Assembly: GCA_963727895.1 (NCBI GenBank)
Contig: CAVSHT010000003.1
Location: 224,001 to 288,000 of the forward strand
DNA: 64,000 nt
DNA from: an uncultured Methanosarcinaceae archaeon
GTDB lineage: Archaea; Halobacteriota; Methanosarcinia; Methanosarcinales; Methanosarcinaceae
Direction: 5' to 3'
Below the pieces are notes generated by a model that was given only the letters and a program-made list of their open reading frames with translations, had not been told where the DNA came from and did not search any database. Position numbers and translations under genes: made by a program. This document shows, in pieces, positions 19,027-56,107 of the stretch. Position 1 is the stretch's first letter; each line of letters starts with the position of its first letter.

Positions 19027-20088
19027 ATGAAAATGATGAATAAATTACTCAGTTTTTTCTCTTCCACTCCTTTGGTAGAAACGAAAACAATAATAAAAAT
19101 TTGGTATTGTTACTTAAATATATCTAGTTCTTTCTTTCTGTATTTCATCAATAGAATAACCGAGTACTTAGCATTTCAAGACTCTTCGTATAACACTTTG
19201 TCTTTCTTCTCAACCTTGCCAGAAAGTGCCTCAATATGCCGTTATATCCTTCAACAGTATACGTTTCTGCTTTGGATTGAGTATGGATCTTTTCTGGAAG
19301 AAACTCTGCATATGCTCTCCAGTGATCTGTCATCACTTCTCCAATCTCTTTTTTCTTCAATTTTTCCCAGAGTAGTTTTCCAGTTTCCGTTCCTCTGCTA
19401 CCAAAAGAGCAGTTGATGAACTTTTTCCCAACTCTATCAACAGCAATCCAGATACAGCAATATTTTTTTTGTTACCGATGTAAGTGTGCATCTCATCCAT
19501 TTCAACAATAGATATCTCACTTTCACTTTTTAGGTCCTCTCACTCTTGACCAAATTTCTTTATCCATCTTTGGACAGAAACATGACTTACCCCTAAAAAT
19601 CGTCCTATTAAGCGAAAGCCCAATCCTTCAAGATAGAGTTGTAAAGCCTGTATTTTTACAGAGGCGGAAAAAGCAGTTGATTTTAGCTCTACTGTATAGT
19701 TATAGCCATAATCAGAGCATTTGTAGCGTTGACGCCCACCAACTATACCATTCTTTTTGTGACTGGAAATATTACATTTTGGGCAGTTCATGAAGAAATA
19801 TATGTTATAAGCATATATATCTATTTTTGATTACCAATGCCATAAATTTACCTCTTTATAATTTGGTTGACTATTGCATTAATTGCAATGACTGCCAACA
19901 AAATGGTTTCTTATAACAATGTTAAATATTTCTTTTGGGTAATGCCAATCTTTGTGGCTTTGTTATTCACGTTATTTATCAGAGGGTCGCCATTAGAGTT
20001 ATCAAATAAAGAAAATAAAAAAAGTGTTTTTTTACTTATTTTAAGCTTCATTTGCTTAATAGTAACATTTTTTTGGCAATCATATTAA
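19027..20088 (+). pseudogene. Small (104-aa) membrane protein split by IS1 insertion
   Basis: Joining 19027-19102 to 19850-20088 (removing the IS and one TSD copy) gives an uninterrupted 315-nt hydrophobic ORF. Confidence 0.75.
19103..19841 (-). mobile_element. IS1-family element, copy 1 (defective)
   Basis: Ends GGTATTGTTAC / TTACCAATGCC; insA-like CPKC..C zinc ribbon/HTH with premature TGA at 19540; insB-like DDE; 8-bp TSD AAAAATTT/ATAAATTT. Confidence 0.93.
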
Positions 20089-31084: not shown

Positions 31085-31824
31085 GGCATTGGTAAACAAA
31101 AATAGTTATATACTATTAGAAAGTATATTTCTTCATTAACTGCCCAAAATGTAATAATTCCAGTCACAAAAAGAATGGTATAGTTGGTGGGCGTCAACGC
31201 TACAAATGCTCTGATTATGGCTATAACTATACAGTAGAGCTAAAATCAACTGCTTTTTCCGCCTCTGTAAAAATACAGGCTTTACAACTCTATCTTGAAG
31301 GATTGGGCTTTCGCTTAATAGGACGATTTTTAGGGGTAAGTCATGTTTCTGTCCAAAGATGGATAAAGAAATTTGGTCAAGAGTGAGAGGACCTAAAAAG
31401 TGAAAATGAGATATCTATTGTTGAAATGGATGAGATGCACACTTACATCGGTAACAAAAAAAATATTGCTGGATCTGGATTGCTGTTGATAGAGTTGGGA
31501 AAAAGTTCATCAACTGCTCTTTTGGTAGCAGAGGAACGGAAACTGGAAAACTACTCTGGGAAAAATTGAAGAAAAAAGAGATTGGAGAAGTGATGACAGA
31601 TCACTGGAGAGCATATGCAAAGTTTCTTCCAGAAAAGATCCATACTCAATCAAAAGCAGAAACGTATACTGTTGAAGGATATAACAGCATATTGAGGCAT
31701 TTTCTGGCAAGGTTGAGAAGAAAGACAAAGTGTTATACGAAGAGTCTTGAAATGCTAAAGTACTCGGTTATTCTATTGATGAAATAAAGAAATAAAGAAC
31801 TAGATATATTTAAGTAACAATACC
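31085..31824 (+). mobile_element. IS1-family element, copy 2 (defective)
   Basis: GGCATTGGTA ... GTAACAATACC ends; start codon ATG>ATT; same TGA as copy 1; TSD AAACCGTA/AAACTGTA. Confidence 0.93.
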
Positions 31825-41525: not shown

Positions 41526-42265
41526 GGCATTGGTACACAAAAATAGATATATGTGCTTATAACATATATTTCTTCATGAACTGCCCAAAATGTAATAGTT
41601 CCAGTCACAAAAAGAACGGTATAGTTGGCGGGCGTCAACGGTACAAATGCTCTGATTGTGGATATAACTATACAGTAGAGCTAAAATCAACTGCTTTTTC
41701 CGCTTCTGTAAAAAGACAAGCTTTACAACTCTATCTTGAAGGATTAGGCTTTCGTTCAATAGGAAGAGTTTTAGGGGTAAGTCATGTTTCTGTCCAAAAA
41801 TGGATAAAGAAATTTGGTCAGGAGTTAGAGGCCCTAAAAAGTGAAAATGAGATATCTATTGTTGAAATGGATGAGCTGCACACTTACATCGGTAACAAAA
41901 AAAATATTGCTGGATCTGGATTGCTGTTGATAGAGTTGGGAAAAAGTTCATCAACTGCTCTTTTGGTAGCAGAGGAACGGAAACTGGAAAACTACTCTGG
42001 GAAAAAATGAATAAAGAATACATTGGAGAAATGATGACAGATCACTGGAGAGCATATGCAGAGTTTCTTCCAGAAAAGAATCATACTCAATCAAAAGCAG
42101 AAACATTTACAGTTGAGGGATATAACAGCATATTGAGGCATTTTCTAGCAAGATTAAGAAGAAAGACAAAGTGTTATACGAAGAGTCTTGAAATGCTAAA
42201 GTACTCGGTTATTCTATTGATGAAATACAGAAATAAAGAGTTAACTATATTTAGATACTAATACC
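41526..42265 (+). mobile_element. IS1-family element, copy 3 (apparently intact)
   Basis: GGCATTGGTA ... TACTAATACC ends; insA 41576-42010 and insB frame linked by a -1 shift at AACAAAAAAAAT (about 41894-41905); no internal stops seen. Confidence 0.93.
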
Positions 42266-49594: not shown

Positions 49595-50220
49595 TTAATT
49601 TTTGATTCACTTCAGATATTTCTGAACTTTTGGATGTTGGAACGTATTATCTAGAAACAGAAGTAAATTAGTAACTATATACTGAATAGTTACTATTATT
49701 TTTTAGCTAATTTCTTCATCAAATTCAATTTTGCCTGAATATTGAGGGTTTCTACAGAGCCAAAAAAGAAAAAAGAGAAGAGAATATGGGGGGAATAAAT
49801 TTCTCTTTTCTAGGGAAAACTGTTAAAGACGTAATAATTAAAAAACTTTTGAAAGTATATTTAATATCGTCAGGAAACTCTATAAATTCAAAGGATGGCT
49901 AAAAAACTAGAATCTCAAAAGTCTGTTACTAAGAATTAGCTTGCTATTATAATTTGCAGGGAAGCTCTCCCCCAAAAGCTCCCTGAGCATTCACAAAAAG
50001 AGGTTTATTTTACACACTCTAAATACAACCTATTATCTTATCAAAATTACAGAAGAAATTTTTCTGAATATTATTTCGAGATAAAAGAAGTTGAATAGTT
50101 TAAATCACTGAGTAAATTAGAAAGCTATTGAAACTCCAGGAAACAAAAAGCTATGGTGGATATTCTGGTGGTAATTGCACTCTGAAATTATGAATAGATA
50201 ATTGAGAAAAATTTTTGGGA

Positions 50221-51239
50221 TTATTTAAAACGGTTGTATTTCTTATGCGCCTGTTCAGCCGTTATTATATTAAAAACAAGGGCATTGATACTTAAACATA
50301 GTTATATACTATTAGAAAGTATATTTCTTCATGAACTGCCCCAGATGCAATAGTTCCAGTCACAAAAAGAACGGTATAGTTGGTGGTCGTCAACGGTACA
50401 AATGCCATGATTGTGGATATAACTATACAGTAGAGCTAAAATCAACTGCTTTTTTCGCCTCTGTTAAAAAACAGGCTTTACAACTTTACCTTGAAGGATT
50501 GGGCTTTCGTTCAATAGGACGATTTTTAGGGGTGAGTCATGTTTCTGTCCAAAGATGGATCAAGAAATTTGGTCCGGAGTTAGAGGACCTAAAAAGTGAA
50601 AATGAGATATCTATTGTTGAAATGGATGAAATGCACACTTACATCGGTAACAAAAAAATATTGCTGGATCTGGATTGCTGTTGATAGAGTTGGGAAAAAG
50701 TTCATCAACTGCTCTTTTGGCAGCAGAGGAACGGAAACTGGAAAACTACTCTGGGAAAAATTGAAGAAAAAAGACATTGGAGAAGTGATGACAGATCACT
50801 GGAGAGCATATGCAGAGTTTCTTCCTGAAACGATTCATACTCAATCAAAAGCAGAAACGTATACTGTTGAAGGAGATATAACAGCATATTGAGGCATTTT
50901 TTAGCAAGGTTGAGAAGAAAGACAAAGTGTTATACAAAAAGTCTTGAAATGCTAAAGTACTCGGTTATTCTATTGATGAAATACAGAAATAAAGAACTAG
51001 ATATAGTTAAGTAACAATGCCAAAACAAGAGCTTCACTTCTTTCAAAATCAATTTCATATAAAATACGAAAATCGCCTACCTGAAGCCGATAAACTGTCT
51101 TATGACTTCCTTTTACCTCTTTTTTGTTTCCCCCTGGCAAGGGATCTTTTAGTTCACGAAGAGCCTCTTTTATTTGATCCCTTCGATTTACAGGAACATT
51201 TTCGAAGACCTTAGGGTGAATCAGAACTTTAAAGGTCAT
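50221..51239 (-). pseudogene. RelE/ParE-family toxin interrupted by IS1 copy 4
   Basis: YRLQVGDFRILYEID RelE motif; removing the IS restores an 89-aa ORF ending ...EALVFNIITAEQAHKKYNRFK* at 50221. Confidence 0.85.
50281..51021 (+). mobile_element. IS1-family element, copy 4 (defective)
   Basis: GGCATTGATAC ... GTAACAATGCC ends; perfect 8-bp TSD AAAACAAG; slip site shortened to A7 and a 2-bp insertion near 50873. Confidence 0.95.
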
Positions 51240-51423
51240 CGATGCTCACGAACTCGTCACGATGTTCTTTTATGAGCTTATCACCTTAGTCTATAAGTTT
51301 ATTGCAGTTGTGTTCATGGATCAATTTTCGTATAACGGTATTATAGTCATCACCCATTTTCCCAATGTTTTTTAACTCCTCGCGAGTGTCTTTAGATATC
51401 TGTATAGTTGTAGTTTCTGACAT
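51229..51423 (-). pseudogene. Cognate antitoxin (RHH-like N-terminus) with a premature stop
   Basis: MSETTTIQISKDTREELKNIGKMGDDYNTVIRKLIHEHNCNKLID*GDKLIKEHRDEFVSIDDL*; TAA at 51286-51288; true stop overlaps the toxin start. Confidence 0.8.
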
Positions 51424-52010
51424 AATAGTCACTATAACTATTATGGTATTTATAACATATGATGTACAGTGAAATAAATTATTAAGGTAGTCATGCAGAT
51501 GTAATTATTGAAAGAACGCGCCATGAAGACTATCCATCTGAACTCAAAAACCCCATTCTGCTAGTATATAGGAATATTCAAGTCAATTTCGATTTTTAAA
51601 AACAGACTGTATGAAAAATTTTGAAATCTGAAATTTTACTGCGAAAAGTGAGTTTTATTTTCAGGTTCACTGTTTAACTTTTAGAATATGTCGTTTTTAC
51701 ATTTCATTTTAAAAATGTCTCAAAGCGGCTTAGAATGATATATTTTTTTTACTGTTAATGGCAACACAAAAACGCAATGAGAAAGGAATCCAGAAAAACT
51801 CAAAAATGCAGTAATTTTCCTGTAAAAATACTACATTTCATAAACGTAGTTTTTCTCAAAAACTCTACATTTTGTCCTTGGATTAACCAAATTTCACTCA
51901 AATTCCCCTTAATACTCCTAGGGAATACATAGTTTTACAACAAAACTTGTACATCGAATAAACTGCAAAAATAAACAGATTTAGCATGAAAGTACATGAG
52001 GAGATTATCC

Positions 52011-53271
52011 TCACGTGCTCTCTTGATCCTTTTTCCCCATAATCGCAAATATTTCACTAATTATTTTAATCCGTTCATCAACCGAAAAAATCTCAGTCTC
52101 AATAATCTTTCTCTTTTGGATTTCTCTTTTGATATCCGGTTTCATCTTCGTCCATCTCATCGTTTGTAATAAGATGCCATAGTATCGTTGCAATTTTCCT
52201 TGCTAAGGCAATAATTGCTTTTGCATGTCCAATCGACTTCTTTTTTCTGTTAAAAAACTCTTTTAACCTGCTATTCTTCTTTCTTGCTGCTGCTTGAGCA
52301 ATCTGTGTCAGAATCCACCTTGCTACTTTTGATCCCCTCTTTGTGATTCTGCCGTTATAGTATTTATCTGCAGATTGATACACATTAGGAACTAGACCAA
52401 GCCAAGAAGCAAGCTTATTTCCAGAAGAAAAATCCTTAAAGTTGCCTATTTCAGCAAGTAAAATTGCCGCACCAAGTTCCCCTATACCTGGAACTGACAT
52501 TAAAATCTCCATTTCTCGCTTATGATTTCGAGAAGCATAATTAAAAATTTCTTTTTCTAAAGCTTCGAGTTCATCATCAAGACTTTTTATGAGTTTCAGA
52601 CAGATCTGAAGTCTGAATGCAGCACTTTGAGAAATTTCTCGATCAAGAATTTCTCTTATCTGAGCAGCTTTTTTCCGAACATTTGGAGAGAGGCTTGCAA
52701 TAATCTGATCAACACTCTTACCTGAAGAGATTCCTAATAAGATCATTCTGCCATTCTTGCCAAAAACGTCTGTCAGCACATTATTCAGGTGTAGCATTTC
52801 AGATGCAAGAATTGAATTTCAGATGCAAGAATTGAGTGAACTTTATTTTTTAAATCTGTTCTTTTTTGTACAAGTGTTAACCGAAGTCGAACATATGATC
52901 TAAAATCTATATGATCCTTTGGAAAAACTCTTGATGGCTGAATCATATTATTAAGTGCAAGTTGTGCAATGACTTCTGAGTCAATCTTATCTGTTTTTTA
53001 TGGGTAAATACCTTCATATCTCGCGCATTTCCAACTATCACAGTTAGATGCTTTACCAATGAATCATGAATCGGAACCCAAAAGTAGCTGGTTGATTCAC
53101 ATGCAACAACATCACATTTTTCTGATATTACCCAATTTTTAAGGGCTAAAATTCCTTCATCATCTCTGTTGAAGCGTTGCTGTTGTTTTTCACCAGATAT
53201 ACTGAGAATTGTAGCAATGAAAAAGAGTTTGTGAATGTCTAAACCACAAGCTTTGTTATGACTTCAATCAA
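52011..53271 (-). pseudogene. IS110-family transposase/recombinase, multiply frameshifted
   Basis: CGLDIHK, ACEST, DKIDS (DEDD), SVPGIG, WLGLVP..YQSADK, ALARK; several 1-bp indels and a 20-bp tandem duplication at 52796-52835. Confidence 0.9.
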
Positions 53272-53290
53272 ATTAGATCACCAAATTTAT

Positions 53291-53424
53291 TTGGGCAGTG
53301 GAATTGCCTAAAAGGCCAATTTAGCATCCGTGATCAAAGTCACACTTGAGCCTTCGATGGCAATTCACTGATTAGTTTTAGGACGGTTTTGAAAAACCAA
53401 AATCGAGACAACCTTACTGCCCAA
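53291..53424 (-). ncRNA. Candidate IS110 bridge/seek RNA
   Basis: 9-bp closing stem TTGGGCAGT/ACTGCCCAA enclosing two hairpins with internal loops, directly upstream of the transposase. Confidence 0.55.
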
Positions 53425-53559
53425 GGTAATGAGGACTTAATAGTCAAAAAAAAGAACGGAGAGTACTGTCATTAGTTGTGCTTGTTATTCGAAGAAAAGC
53501 ATGTGCGTTGTAGGGGTGAGTCATGTGCAGTAGATATTAATAATATTTTCATATAATGT

Positions 53560-54394
53560 CTAGTTAGACAGCTCAGAATGAAACACTTCTTTATTCAGTC
53601 CATATGTTTTTACTAGAAATTTTACTTTCTCTAAGAACTCATTGGGTGACGTGGGAGATATGTATATTTTTTCAACTAATGTGTCTAATGAAATATTAAC
53701 GTACATTCCTTTACGTTCTACATTTTCGTCATCGTCTTCTTCTTTTTCTGTATCCTCAAATGCAACTATGGCTCTGATCTCTTTTTCTTCTACGAAATCT
53801 TTTTATCTTTTGTATAAGAAAGGGCAATAATCATTTCCAAGAACTATTTTTAATTCTTCGTTAATAGGTTATTTTTCCGAGAAATACTGTAGGCTTATTA
53901 TTACTAAAACAGTCTTGTAATCTTTTAAAATTTGATTGAATTGCAATGCCTGTCTCTTTTTCAGTGTACTTATCCCACATATATTTTGACTCGCATTCAT
54001 TCATATGAAAGCATTTTATAACAATTTCGTTCCTTGAACGATTTTTTCGCATATTGAGTATAATTTGTATCACTGGCACTTCTATATCTTTACCACTGTA
54101 GTTATCTATCAGATCTTTAAAAAGTTAAATGGTATCAATGTCTGTATCTGTATTGTAAAGTTCAGTTAACAATATTTGTATATTTTCGTCTTTGCATCTA
54201 TCCCGAAGCTCATGAATTGTGTTAAAGTCGGCATCAGTGGGACAACCTTCCCTAGGATCATCAAAAGAATTAGGACTTGAATAAAATAGCTTTTTAGTTT
54301 CTAACAATTCAACAAAATGTTTATATTTCATATAATGCCATATTTTTACCGAATCATTATCAGGCAGTTTGAAATATTTGTGCTCTTGATACAT
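53560..54394 (-). pseudogene. DUF2971-like protein, fragmented
   Basis: IWHYM ... FDDPREG, CFH ... ESKYMWDKY ... GIAIQ, EEKEIRA, IYISP motifs spread over several broken frames. Confidence 0.65.
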
Positions 54395-54446
54395 AATGTG
54401 AAATCCTTTTATATTTGATTAATTTTGATGAAAAAAATTAGTTAAT

Positions 54447-54576
54447 GAGTTATCTCGAAACTCAAAGGTTGATTTTTGAATCTCGTATTTGGAGCAGTCA
54501 ATCGAATATATGATCAGGGGGAATGACTCTGAAAACTCCTGATGATTTAGAATAAAACAGGTTTTGGGATAGGCTC
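54447..54576. mobile_element. 130-bp MITE-like element, copy B (inverted relative to copy A)
   Basis: Ends GAGTTATCTCGAAAC / GTTTTGGGATAGGCTC; same length as and internally homologous to 40262-40391. Confidence 0.7.
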
Positions 54577-54697
54577 TATGAGAAACGCATAGGAACTTGT
54601 TATACTTTTTCTGTTCGAGTTTTTACTCACTCAAAAAATAGAACATTACAATATTTAATAGCCTTTTAATTAAAAAAGAAACCAGAATATTCTGGCT

Positions 54698-56107
54698 TCA
54701 CTGTTCTTTCAAATATTCATCAATTGCTTTTGCGGCTTTCTTGCCTGCGCCCATTGCACTGATAACGGTTGCTGCGCCTGTGACTACATCTCCACCTGCA
54801 AAGACTCCGCACTTTGAGGTTGCACCGGTTTCTTCGTCTGCAATTACAGTACCTCTCTTGTTCTGGTCAAGACCTTCTGAACCTTTGAAGATCATCGGGT
54901 TTGGAGAAGTACCAATTGCAATAACCACTACATCAGCAGGGATTGTGAATTCCGAACCTTCTACAGGGACAGGGCTTCTTCTTCCAGATTTATCAGGTTC
55001 GCCAAGTTCCATTTTAATGCATTCAACGGCTGTAGCATTGAACTTTTCGTCACCAAGAATGCGGACAGGGTTTGTAAGGAGCCTGAAGGTTATGCCTTCT
55101 TCTTTAGCGTGCTCGATTTCTTCCCTGCGGGCTGGCATCTCATCTTCCCCACGTCGGTAGACTATGCTTACCTCATTAGCGCCCAGACGAAGAGCTGAAC
55201 GAGCGGCGTCCATTGCCACATTTCCGCCTCCAACGACCACAACACGCTTTCCTAGCCTGACTCTGGTATCATATTCTGGGTCATAGGCTTTCATGAAGTT
55301 TACGCGGGTAAGAAACTCGTTTGCAGAATATACGCCGTTGAAGTTTTCTCCTGGAATTCCCATAAAGCTTGGGAGGCCTGCGCCTGTGCCAAGGAAAACT
55401 GCATCGAATTCGTCACAGAGTTCATCTAAAGTCTTGATCCTGCCAATTATATAGTTGGGCTTGAACTCGACTCCAAGCTGTTTTATGTAGTCAATTTCCT
55501 GATGCACAATTTCCTTTGGTAATCTAAATTCGGGAATGCCGTAACTCAATACTCCGCCAGCCTTGTGGAGAGATTCAAAAACTGTGACTTTGTGCCCCAT
55601 CTTTGCAAGATCTGCTGCGGCAGTAAGCCCTGCAGGACCTGAACCTACAACAGCTACTTTCTTTCCTGTAGGTTCCGAAACTTCAGGAACCTTCACTCCC
55701 TGCTGGCGTTCGTAGTCGGCACAGAAACGTTCGAGTCTTCCTATTGCTACCGGCTGTCCTTTCTTTCCGAGCACGCATAGAGCTTCGCACTGAGTTTCCT
55801 GAGGGCATACACGGCCACAAATTGCAGGAAGTGCATTTGTGCCTTTAATTTTTTCTATTGCTCCTGAGAAGTCTTCTTCGCAGATTAACTTGATAAAACC
55901 TGGAATATCGACATTTACAGGGCAGCCTTCAACACATTTTGGTTCCTTGCAGGAAAGGCAACGAGAGGCTTCAGCCAGAGCGTCTTCTTTCGTGTAGCCA
56001 AGGGCTACTTCATTAAAATTCTTTCTGCGCTCTTCTGCAGGCTGTTCTGGCATTGGGGTTCTTTCTTTCTTTGCCTTTACTGTTTTTTCTCCATTTAGTT
56101 CTTGCAT
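54698..56107 (-). CDS. nfnB: NfnB/SudA (GltD-like) flavoprotein subunit of NADH-dependent ferredoxin:NADP+ oxidoreductase
   Basis: RCLSC ... CVEGCP, CGRVCPQETQCE, GSGPAG, YGIPEFRLP, GGGNVAMD, AGGDVVTG. Confidence 0.88.
   Translation of the reverse strand: MQELNGEKTVKAKKERTPMPEQPAEERRKNFNEVALGYTKEDALAEASRCLSCKEPKCVEGCPVNVDIPGFIKLICEEDFSGAIEKIKGTNALPAICGRVCPQETQCEALCVLGKKGQPVAIGRLERFCADYERQQGVKVPEVSEPTGKKVAVVGSGPAGLTAAADLAKMGHKVTVFESLHKAGGVLSYGIPEFRLPKEIVHQEIDYIKQLGVEFKPNYIIGRIKTLDELCDEFDAVFLGTGAGLPSFMGIPGENFNGVYSANEFLTRVNFMKAYDPEYDTRVRLGKRVVVVGGGNVAMDAARSALRLGANEVSIVYRRGEDEMPARREEIEHAKEEGITFRLLTNPVRILGDEKFNATAVECIKMELGEPDKSGRRSPVPVEGSEFTIPADVVVIAIGTSPNPMIFKGSEGLDQNKRGTVIADEETGATSKCGVFAGGDVVTGAATVISAMGAGKKAAKAIDEYLKEQ

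Follow-up and report, generated by a model that had tools for sequence, protein, structure and literature searches.

The 64,000-nt stretch of DNA from an uncultured Methanosarcinaceae archaeon analysed here (the window) carries on its minus strand, at 51980-53510, a decayed copy of a 1.53-kb IS110-family element. The copy is made up of a 236-nt non-coding left end, a broken transposase gene, and a right end that extends only 28 nt past the stop codon, and its left end encodes a predicted bridge RNA of ~135 nt. Bridge and seek RNAs were described in 2024 from bacterial elements (PMC11208160, PMC11187229; here and below, published systems are cited from portions of their reports). We consider it very probable that the locus is a decayed IS110-group copy with a guide RNA whose first arm bears a target loop and whose second arm bears a donor loop, and that the element inserts scarlessly at an AAA core.

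The element, its transposase and its ends

The genome assembly that contains the window (19 contigs, 84% complete) holds 21 near-full copies of the element with 92-100% identity, plus fragments. The sole long frame is found in the copy at C4:393022-394552, and its 390-residue product, P0001, matches DEDD_Tnp_IS110 (PF01548, E 2.5e-17), Transposase_20 (PF02371, E 3.6e-26) and the NCBIfam model NF033542 'IS110 family RNA-guided transposase' (261 bits, cut-off 140). The best solved-structure relatives of P0001 are IS621 and ISCro4, and good alignment with IS621 is confined to the C-terminal domain (E 3.7e-9). These matches identify P0001 as a predicted recombinase that combines a RuvC-like DEDD domain with a Tnp domain at its C terminus. 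Its relatives occur in Methanosarcina (80-84% identity), Methanospirillum and Methanoculleus (54%), and Methanoperedens (41%). An earlier note on this DNA had proposed an archaeal IS110 element with a dead transposase, and both proposals are borne out, the one by the domain and family matches of the frame-open copy and the other by the state of the window gene. Compared with the frame-open copy, the window gene has lost 1 nt each at ~53258 and ~52999 and 2 nt at ~52127 and carries a 20-nt tandem duplication, and the only open frames left are of 232 and 53 codons. One of the 17 duplication-bearing copies has the 20-nt unit three times. P0001 itself stops ~27 codons early and has TAT (Y) at the conserved D of the KTDKID motif, a position occupied by D in 9/9 aligned homologues (KKTDKID); the same TAT occurs in five copies. 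Because an already broken gene has spread into different target variants, we conclude that the copies mostly spread while already frameshifted and hence were mobilised in trans. The copies hardly differ from one another in the RNA region, and the RNA of the window copy is intact.

The ends of the element were fixed by aligning the ends of the 21 copies, with their flanks, against uninterrupted target sites, of which 220 were obtained by pairing flank matches and 223 by pattern. All 21 right ends read ...GTACTTTCATGCTAAA and then continue into variable sequence, and similarity at the left end begins at (C)CTAAAACGCACATG. The last element base on the right is 51980, with flank from 51979, exactly as the earlier note had placed it; the left end, which it had set at 53503, proved to lie 4-7 nt further out, as the first element-unique base is C 53507, preceded by the core at 53510-53508. 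CATGCT (AGCATG on the plus strand) is present near both ends, as had been noted. The right core is 51982-51980, and the left core of the window copy is mutated to CAA. The 220 empty sites read ...ACTYACCCCTAAAA(C/A)TC..., also written ...ACTYACCCCTAAAACTCTTCC or ...CCCCTAAAAATCGTCC. A four-A empty site leaves four A at the left junction (CCCCTAAAA-CGCAC) and three at the right (CATGCTAAA-CTCTTCC), and a five-A site gives four A at each junction. The A count thereby yields the target CCCCTA-AAA-RT, the left junction CCCCTAAAA-CGCAC and the right junction CATGCTAAA-RT. This bookkeeping indicates that the joined ends CATGCT-AAA-CGCAC meet the target CCCCTA-AAA-RT with a crossover in AAA and no duplication. 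Insertion is therefore scarless, and the target and each element end carry a short 3-nt AAA core. A 5-nt core or duplication of sequence CTAAA was ruled out because, given the empty sites, it calls for one A more than occupied right junctions have.

In RNA-library contigs from a relative of ~90% identity, the match breaks off at 51979 and 53509; beyond those points the contigs run into left flanks ending in ...TCTA and ...ACTA, so their breakpoints agree with the inferred ends. Across the RNA runs (24/24) only ~9% of words were present, and the four runs examined correspond to the relative's contigs; these contigs carry no starts, ends or strand and are used here as evidence for the ends, not for expression.

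The usual target is a repeat of ~740 bp, an IS1-family element with ~240 copies that make up roughly 5% of the genome. Each copy has a zinc-ribbon/helix-turn-helix (HTH) open reading frame (ORF) followed by a DDE_Tnp_IS1 ORF in another frame. The preferred site, CCTA-AAA-(A)TCG, lies inside the HTH-coding part, so each insertion breaks one IS1-family copy. Nine of the 21 IS110-family copies have the target repeat on both sides, three on the left only, five on the right only and three on neither side; the remaining one, the window copy, has 16 nt of it on the left.

The predicted guide RNA

Sequences lying upstream of the gene in 16 distinct elements were aligned (alignment A1) and folded with RNAalifold, which gave a three-way junction closed by an outer stem, P1 (Table 1). 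The fold paired 89.8% of 625 cells, compared with 28-49% in slid controls, and 20/40 pairs had changes on both sides versus 9.8 in shuffles (0/500 shuffles as high). A covariance model built from this fold, R1, matched 10/150 other genomes of the phylum, in 7/62 genera including the window's own. The set aligned with R1 (A2) comprises 32 sequences, and the fold is supported across 16-32 methanogen homologues; L094 and L100 (47-57 bits, poor guide-geometry fit), L101 (34.7 bits), and L080 and L097 (loop deleted) were excluded from all counts. Folding of a single 281-nt sequence gave z = -1.51, which is not significant alone, so support for the fold comes from covariation and not from single-sequence folding energy. 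An Rfam scan of 50000-55000 (E up to 1) returned only a chance-level Gut-1 match outside the element. The covariation bears out the bridge-RNA fold that the earlier note had drawn in the non-coding end upstream of the transposase, and all of its stems and hairpins, including the inner GTGA/TCAC, are present on the minus strand. It had overlooked the P2 helix GGUUG/UAAUC, which closes the internal loop below hairpin 1.

In 53428-53450 and in the Methanosarcina homologues, a conserved T-run is followed by a TATA-like motif (TTTTTTGACTATTAAG, GTATATTAAC, GTTTATTAAC) ~20-25 nt upstream of P1. Judged by eye, it may serve the RNA as an internal archaeal promoter.

The two strands of the loop below hairpin 1 match both target strands around the core and, on these matches, are the predicted target guides. 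The 5' guide UCUCGAUUUU is the reverse complement of AAAATCGAGA, i.e. core plus right flank, and fits AAA+ATCG or AAAA+TCG targets. The 3' guide GUCCUAAAAC has the sense of the left flank, the core and the first element base, and the left junctions of the 20/20 scorable copies (of 21) read CTA(A/C)AA, including seven copies that lie outside the IS1 repeat. Both guides covary with DNA outside the element. By a cruder scoring, guides matched cognate flanks better in 9/13 families on the left and 9/12 on the right (1/5000 permutations each). When the left guide was scored against 8 nt of left flank, cognate flanks gave 6.67 and non-cognate flanks 4.38, with the cognate value higher in 13/13 families; the right guide against 7 nt of right flank gave 3.92 and 2.66, respectively, and was higher in 10/12 families (0/10000 permutations for either side). 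Pairs of guide and left flank in other families include GUAGAAAAAC with ...CCAGAAAAA-C, GUCAGAAAAC with ...ACAGAAAA-C, GACUACGAAAC with ...ATACGAAA-C and AUAGUUAAAC with ...ATAGTTAAA-C. On the right side, AAAGAAAAGA goes with AAA-GAAAAAGG, AAAATCTGCA with AAA-ATCGGCA, and AAAATAAGGA with AAA-TAAG in most of 14 M. spelaei flanks.

Occupancy of the IS1 sites in the genome tracks the match to the right guide. Sites of class AAAA+TC were occupied in 5 of 10 cases, AAAAA+TC in 6 of 64, AAAA+CTC in 3 of 147 and other classes in 0 of 16, and the difference between AAAA+TC and AAAA+CTC was significant (Fisher p = 1.7e-5).

A variant right-target guide, UCUUGAUUUU (reverse complement AAAATCAAGA), was observed in five copies of the genome, e.g. 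C4:466247-467797 and C5:154768-156318. It fits AAA+TCATCC sites perfectly; 3/3 sites with this sequence are occupied, and the 223 empty sites include none.

The second arm holds the 9-mer ATGCTAAAT at 53327-53319, which recurs at 51987-51979 as the earlier note had reported. The 3' strand of this loop, GGAUGCUAAAUUG, is identical to the right end of the element itself together with the core. Of the nine bases, eight (ATGCTAAA) belong to right end and core and stay the same in 21/21 copies irrespective of the flank; the ninth, T, agrees with the first flank base in only 10/21 copies and occurs also in most flanks of relatives. The repeat of the 9-mer alone is not beyond chance (3 matches in the window versus 1.58 expected; 21/100 shuffles reach 3), and its significance comes from its conservation in the aligned copies and its covariation with the right end in other families. 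Right ends were identified there from the conserved motif (C/T)TT(T/A)CAT, independent of the loop. In 19/20 elements the loop matches the right end at 7-8 of 8 positions, and the three bases before the A run take 11 states (GCT, GTT, GCC, GGA, AGA, AGG, AGT, ACA, ACG, ACT and GCG). Co-changes of loop and right end include AUGCCAAA/ATGCCAAA, AUGUUAAA/ATGTTAAA, AUGGAAAA/ATGGAAAA and AUAGGAAG/ATAGGAAG. Since the loop varies with the right end and not with the flank, the 9-mer is a donor guide, not a target guide.

The left tip of the element was compared with the donor loop as well. The 5' strand of the loop (UCAAGU, UCAAAU, UGAACU...) was ruled out as a right-donor guide because it has no complementarity to the left tip and does not covary with it; it stays unchanged while the left tip varies among CGCA, CACA, CGAA, CGGA and CGTA. 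This strand is short (UCAAGU here) and can pair with UUG after the donor guide. A discontinuous guide AUGUG-AC-UUU, composed of inner hairpin and loop, was also rejected, because its fit is limited to the left tips of Methanosarcina and breaks down in Methanospirillum and Methanoculleus, and because it clashes with the covarying GUGA/UCAC stem. The terminal C of the target guide is the first element base, and the U of the donor guide is the commonest first flank base; by analogy, the two may act like the handshake bases of IS621.

An inverted repeat links a site ~38-50 nt inside the left end with 51986-51995, and measures 10-13 nt in Methanosarcina, 12 nt in Methanospirillum and 17 nt in L066. 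It may represent a site for protein at each end or an additional contact between RNA and DNA. The proximal subterminal repeat is 5 bp in the genome's main form and 7-9 bp in relatives (CATGAAA, 7 bp). In the Methanoperedens element at L066:61-85, the left flank TTTTCATACGAAA resembles the element's own right end TTTACATAGGAAG, so that the target looks like a donor end.

By analogy with IS621 and ISEc21, the RNA would be expressed and bound by the recombinase and would act on a circular intermediate. The arm-1 loop would bind target DNA, and the arm-2 loop would bind the donor by matching the joined ends CATGCT-AAA-CGCAC of the excised circle, whose predicted junction is ...GTACTTTCATGCT-AAA-CGCACATG... 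The RNA-bound recombinase would then exchange strands at the AAA core and recombine the CATGCT-AAA-CGCAC donor into the target CCTAAAATCG, and the element would enter without duplication.

Table 1. Positions of the element, its predicted RNA and its target sites in the window
Feature	Positions	Strand	Basis
Whole IS110-family element, including one AAA core per end	51980..53510	-	End alignment of 21 copies, 220 empty sites, relative's RNA-library contigs
Usual target sequence from the IS1-family element, 16 nt (ACATGACTCACCCCTA), on the left side of the insertion	53511..53526	-	Unique sequence beyond
Second occurrence, inside the left end, of inverted right-end sequence GTACTTTCAT; reads ATGACAGTAC in this copy and ATGAAAGTAC in most	53463..53472	-	Inverted repeat co-changing between families
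Predicted bridge RNA, three-way junction closed by P1, target arm and donor arm	53287..53427	-	Covariance model R1, 151.6 bits
P1 5' strand TTGGGCAGT (outer stem)	53416..53424	-	Pairs with 53291-53299; 7/9 pairs with compensatory changes
P2 5' strand GGTTG, pairs with TAATC 53370-53374	53409..53413	-	RNAalifold; 98.8% of cells paired; 3/5 pairs with double changes
Target loop 5' strand TCTCGATTTT, complementary to top strand of core and right flank (right-target guide type, RTG)	53399..53408	-	Covariation, site occupancy
Hairpin 1 GGTTT-TTCA-AAACC, distal stem of target arm	53385..53398	-	4/5 pairs with double changes
Target loop 3' strand GTCCTAAAAC, sense of left flank, AAA core and first element base (left-target guide type, LTG)	53375..53384	-	Junctions, covariation
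Donor arm: stems GAATTGCC/GGCAATTC and AAGGC/GCCTT, internal loop, hairpin GTGA/TCAC	53301..53366	-	RNAalifold, covariation
Donor loop 3' strand GGATGCTAAATTG, sense of right end and core (left-donor guide type, LDG), holds the 9-mer 53319-53327	53317..53329	-	Cross-family match
P1 3' strand ACTGCCCAA	53291..53299	-	Pairs with TTGGGCAGT
Transposase pseudogene, TTG start 53271-53269, TGA stop 52013-52011	52011..53271	-	Comparison with frame-open copy
Tandem duplication of 20 nt, frame-breaking	52816..52835	-	17/21 copies; absent from relative's RNA-library contigs
Right end GTACTTTCATGCTAAA: subterminal repeat, left-donor bases ATGCT, AAA core (51980-51982)	51980..51995	-	Copy alignment, cross-family comparison
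Unoccupied target site in the neighbouring IS1-family copy	50524..50541	-	Within HTH_23 match of ORF 50331-50684; next ORF 50596-50892 is DDE_Tnp_IS1
Other unoccupied target sites	19581-19598; 31328-31345; 41769-41786	+; -; -	Pattern match

Alternative readings

The earlier note had read the 9-mer in the 3' hairpin as the target guide, matching core and right flank, and had found no donor guide. This reading rests on the two occurrences of ATGCTAAAT in the window copy, one in the loop and one spanning the right junction, and as T is the commonest first flank base among the genome's own copies, the ninth base may have some role. Against it, eight of the nine bases lie inside the element. The comparison of the loop with target flanks that had been suggested as a check, made across other families, showed that the loop follows the right end and that the flanks follow the two strands of the other loop. 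We therefore regard a target-guide role of the 9-mer as exceedingly improbable; the loop in question is itself the donor guide that had seemed to be missing. A second alternative is that the left-end fold has no guide role and serves only as a 5' leader controlling translation of the transposase, or as protein-binding repeats. In ISPpu9, a member of the same clade, a long structured 5' untranslated region inhibits translation (PMC12288879), and the left end here also holds the inverted copy of right-end sequence. A leader or protein site would predict neither the covariation of the two loop strands with DNA outside the element nor the occupancy pattern in the genome, which makes this explanation very unlikely.

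It is less improbable, and still unlikely, that both donor halves are read as in IS621, with a second donor guide located beyond the modelled RNA, such as in the left-end repeat AUGAAAGUAC. Pairing would be possible between this repeat and the top strand of GTACTTTCAT, immediately inside the right end, and the 10-17 nt repeat co-changes between families (ATGAAAGTAC; ATGAAAGTCC with GGACTTTCAT; CATGAAAAAC; in L066, a 17-mer); the same covariation would, however, be expected of identical protein-binding sites at the two ends. In addition, the repeat is ~45 nt upstream of P1 with the TATA-like motif between them, and it would pair to the left of the first donor guide, not across the core.

Several observations weigh against the guide-RNA reading that we prefer. 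A right-donor guide, which would read the left tip AAA-CGCAC..., was not found by eye in 14+ families. The right-flank score does not exceed the non-cognate mean in 3/12 families by the first scoring and in 2/12 by the second, and the right flanks of the genome's own copies match the guide weakly (mean 2.92 of 7). The occupied IS1 copies may not all be independent events. None of the 21 copies in the 84%-complete assembly carries a wild-type transposase gene, i.e. all are defective. No RNA ends, circle junctions or activity were seen, and RNA-library contigs from a ~90%-identical relative cannot prove transcription. Finally, the right end of L041, ATGTCAAA, differs from its own donor guide AUGCUAAA at 2 of 8 positions. 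This right end (L041:2780-2792) fits the loop of L031 (AUGUCAAA; L031:1349-1485), for which the element's own right end was not found, and mobilisation in trans or a hybrid element may account for the mismatch. On the sequence comparisons as a whole, we take the locus to be that of a real, well-supported bridge RNA of an archaeal IS110-group element, with the window copy as a fossil.

Relation to known systems and neighbouring sequences

To place the element, P0001 was added to the domain alignments of 1054 representatives from Durrant's Supplementary Table 1. In the resulting tree it is sister to the entry ISMac14/ISMba20/ISMba7/ISMma5 (support 0.98) and falls within an 89-member clade with ISPpu9 (support 0.91). 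The clade of P0001, taken at up to 105 members, contains no labelled IS110-type entry (IS621, ISEc21, ISPpu10, ISAar29, ISHne5, IS110) and no labelled IS1111-type entry (IS1111A, IS4321/IS5075, ISKpn4/ISPst6, ISEc11, ISPa11, ISAzs32, ISCARN28). Placement by tblastn against plasmids gave uninformative names. Membership of the IS1111 group was ruled out, since the non-coding region is upstream, the repeat is short and the tree position is apart. The nearest named relatives are thus ISMac14, ISMba7, ISMba20 and ISMma5 (ISfinder names; 40% identity over the RuvC-like domain), and we encountered no published description of RNAs of the ISMac14 group. ISPpu9, an IS110-group element with an upstream RNA, a native promoter and several kinds of circle, shares the wider clade but has an AG core and repetitive extragenic palindromic (REP) targets (PMC12288879).

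The element resembles IS621 and ISCro4 in its DEDD plus Tnp recombinase, in a left-end RNA upstream of the gene with the target loop in the 5' arm and the donor loop in the 3' arm, and in the use of one guide strand per DNA strand with a short-core overlap and scarless insertion into a repeat (PMC11208160, PMC11208158). The earlier note had called the layout unlike that of IS621; this holds for the order of guide strands within the loops but not for the order of the arms, which is the same. The left-target guide of IS621 (nt 50-58) lies 5' of its right-target guide (nt 77-80), with an analogous donor loop (PMC11208158), and the same order is visible in the IS621 sequence of Durrant's supplement, where ATCGGGCCT comes before GTAG. 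Here the order in the target loop is reversed, and the left-donor guide is on the 3' strand of the donor loop. The core is AAA here and CT in IS621, and unlike in IS621 the arms are closed by a common stem as a three-way junction and no right-donor guide was found. The seekRNA of ISEc21, of the IS110 type, likewise comes from an upstream non-coding region and targets a conserved coding stretch of another insertion sequence, namely IS3-family DDE codons instead of the IS1-family HTH codons targeted here; its top-strand match is 3' of the bottom-strand match, whereas here it is 5' (PMC11187229). In the latter respect the element is like the IS1111-type seekRNAs of ISEc11, ISPa11 and ISKpn4, in which the segment complementary to the top strand is also 5' of the bottom-strand match, and its relatives share with that type a short subterminal inverted repeat; the RNA of the IS1111 type is nevertheless downstream of the gene, and here it is upstream (PMC11187229).

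We tentatively propose, as a possibility well short of established, that these features represent a distinct methanogen-clade architecture within the IS110 group, with a three-way junction, a guide order opposite to IS621 and ISEc21 despite an upstream RNA, an AAA core, handshake-like extended left-type guides and a donor loop that reads one strand. It would combine the upstream RNA of the IS110 type with the top-strand-complementary strand first, as in the IS1111 type. If this is true, the polarity of recombination relative to the gene would be flipped inside the IS110 group, and donor recognition would be possible with a single guide strand. The locus itself shows methanogens using the same guide logic, with another strand order, another core and perhaps a simpler donor loop. 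Vaysset et al. counted 662 archaeal IS110 recombinases (bioRxiv 10.1101/2024.06.21.599552), and Durrant et al. predicted RNAs for most ISfinder entries (PMC11208160). In the literature covered, which includes part of the tables of Durrant et al., we found no description of an archaeal bridge RNA or of such a layout, and their figures and other tables may already show one. The 21 copies, the >220 empty sites of graded match and the relatives with reprogrammed loops form a natural data set that could be useful for learning the fixed parts of RNA-protein geometry, and the family could be a source of compact archaeal recombinases. In this genome, moreover, one insertion sequence is directed at conserved coding sequence of a second, hyper-abundant insertion sequence, a kind of targeting already known for ISEc21.

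The window contains four IS1-family copies, at 50331-51014 (+) and around 19581, 31328 and 41769. A scan of the window for the target site gave 5 matches versus 0 expected, four of them being empty sites. The window copy of the IS110-family element has unique sequence beyond its 16 nt of IS1 target, and eight other copies are IS1-flanked on one side only. These one-sided flanks suggest rearrangements between copies or recombination at half-matching sites. Excision of the window copy with 16 extra left bases at an upstream CAGAAAC was ruled out, as the left junction of the copy lacks the AAA that such an excision would require, and its right flank was rejected as a repeat family on the basis of two weak matches only. 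Fragments of more distant relatives of the element (77-80% identity) are found in the same genome at C4:93227-94172 and C5:174456-174675. Adjoining the element, at 50997-51432 on the minus strand, lies a small ORF pair that is probably a toxin-antitoxin pair: its 79-residue product matches ParE_toxin (E 9e-6), and the 47-residue product of the upstream ORF has a weak DUF7557 match.

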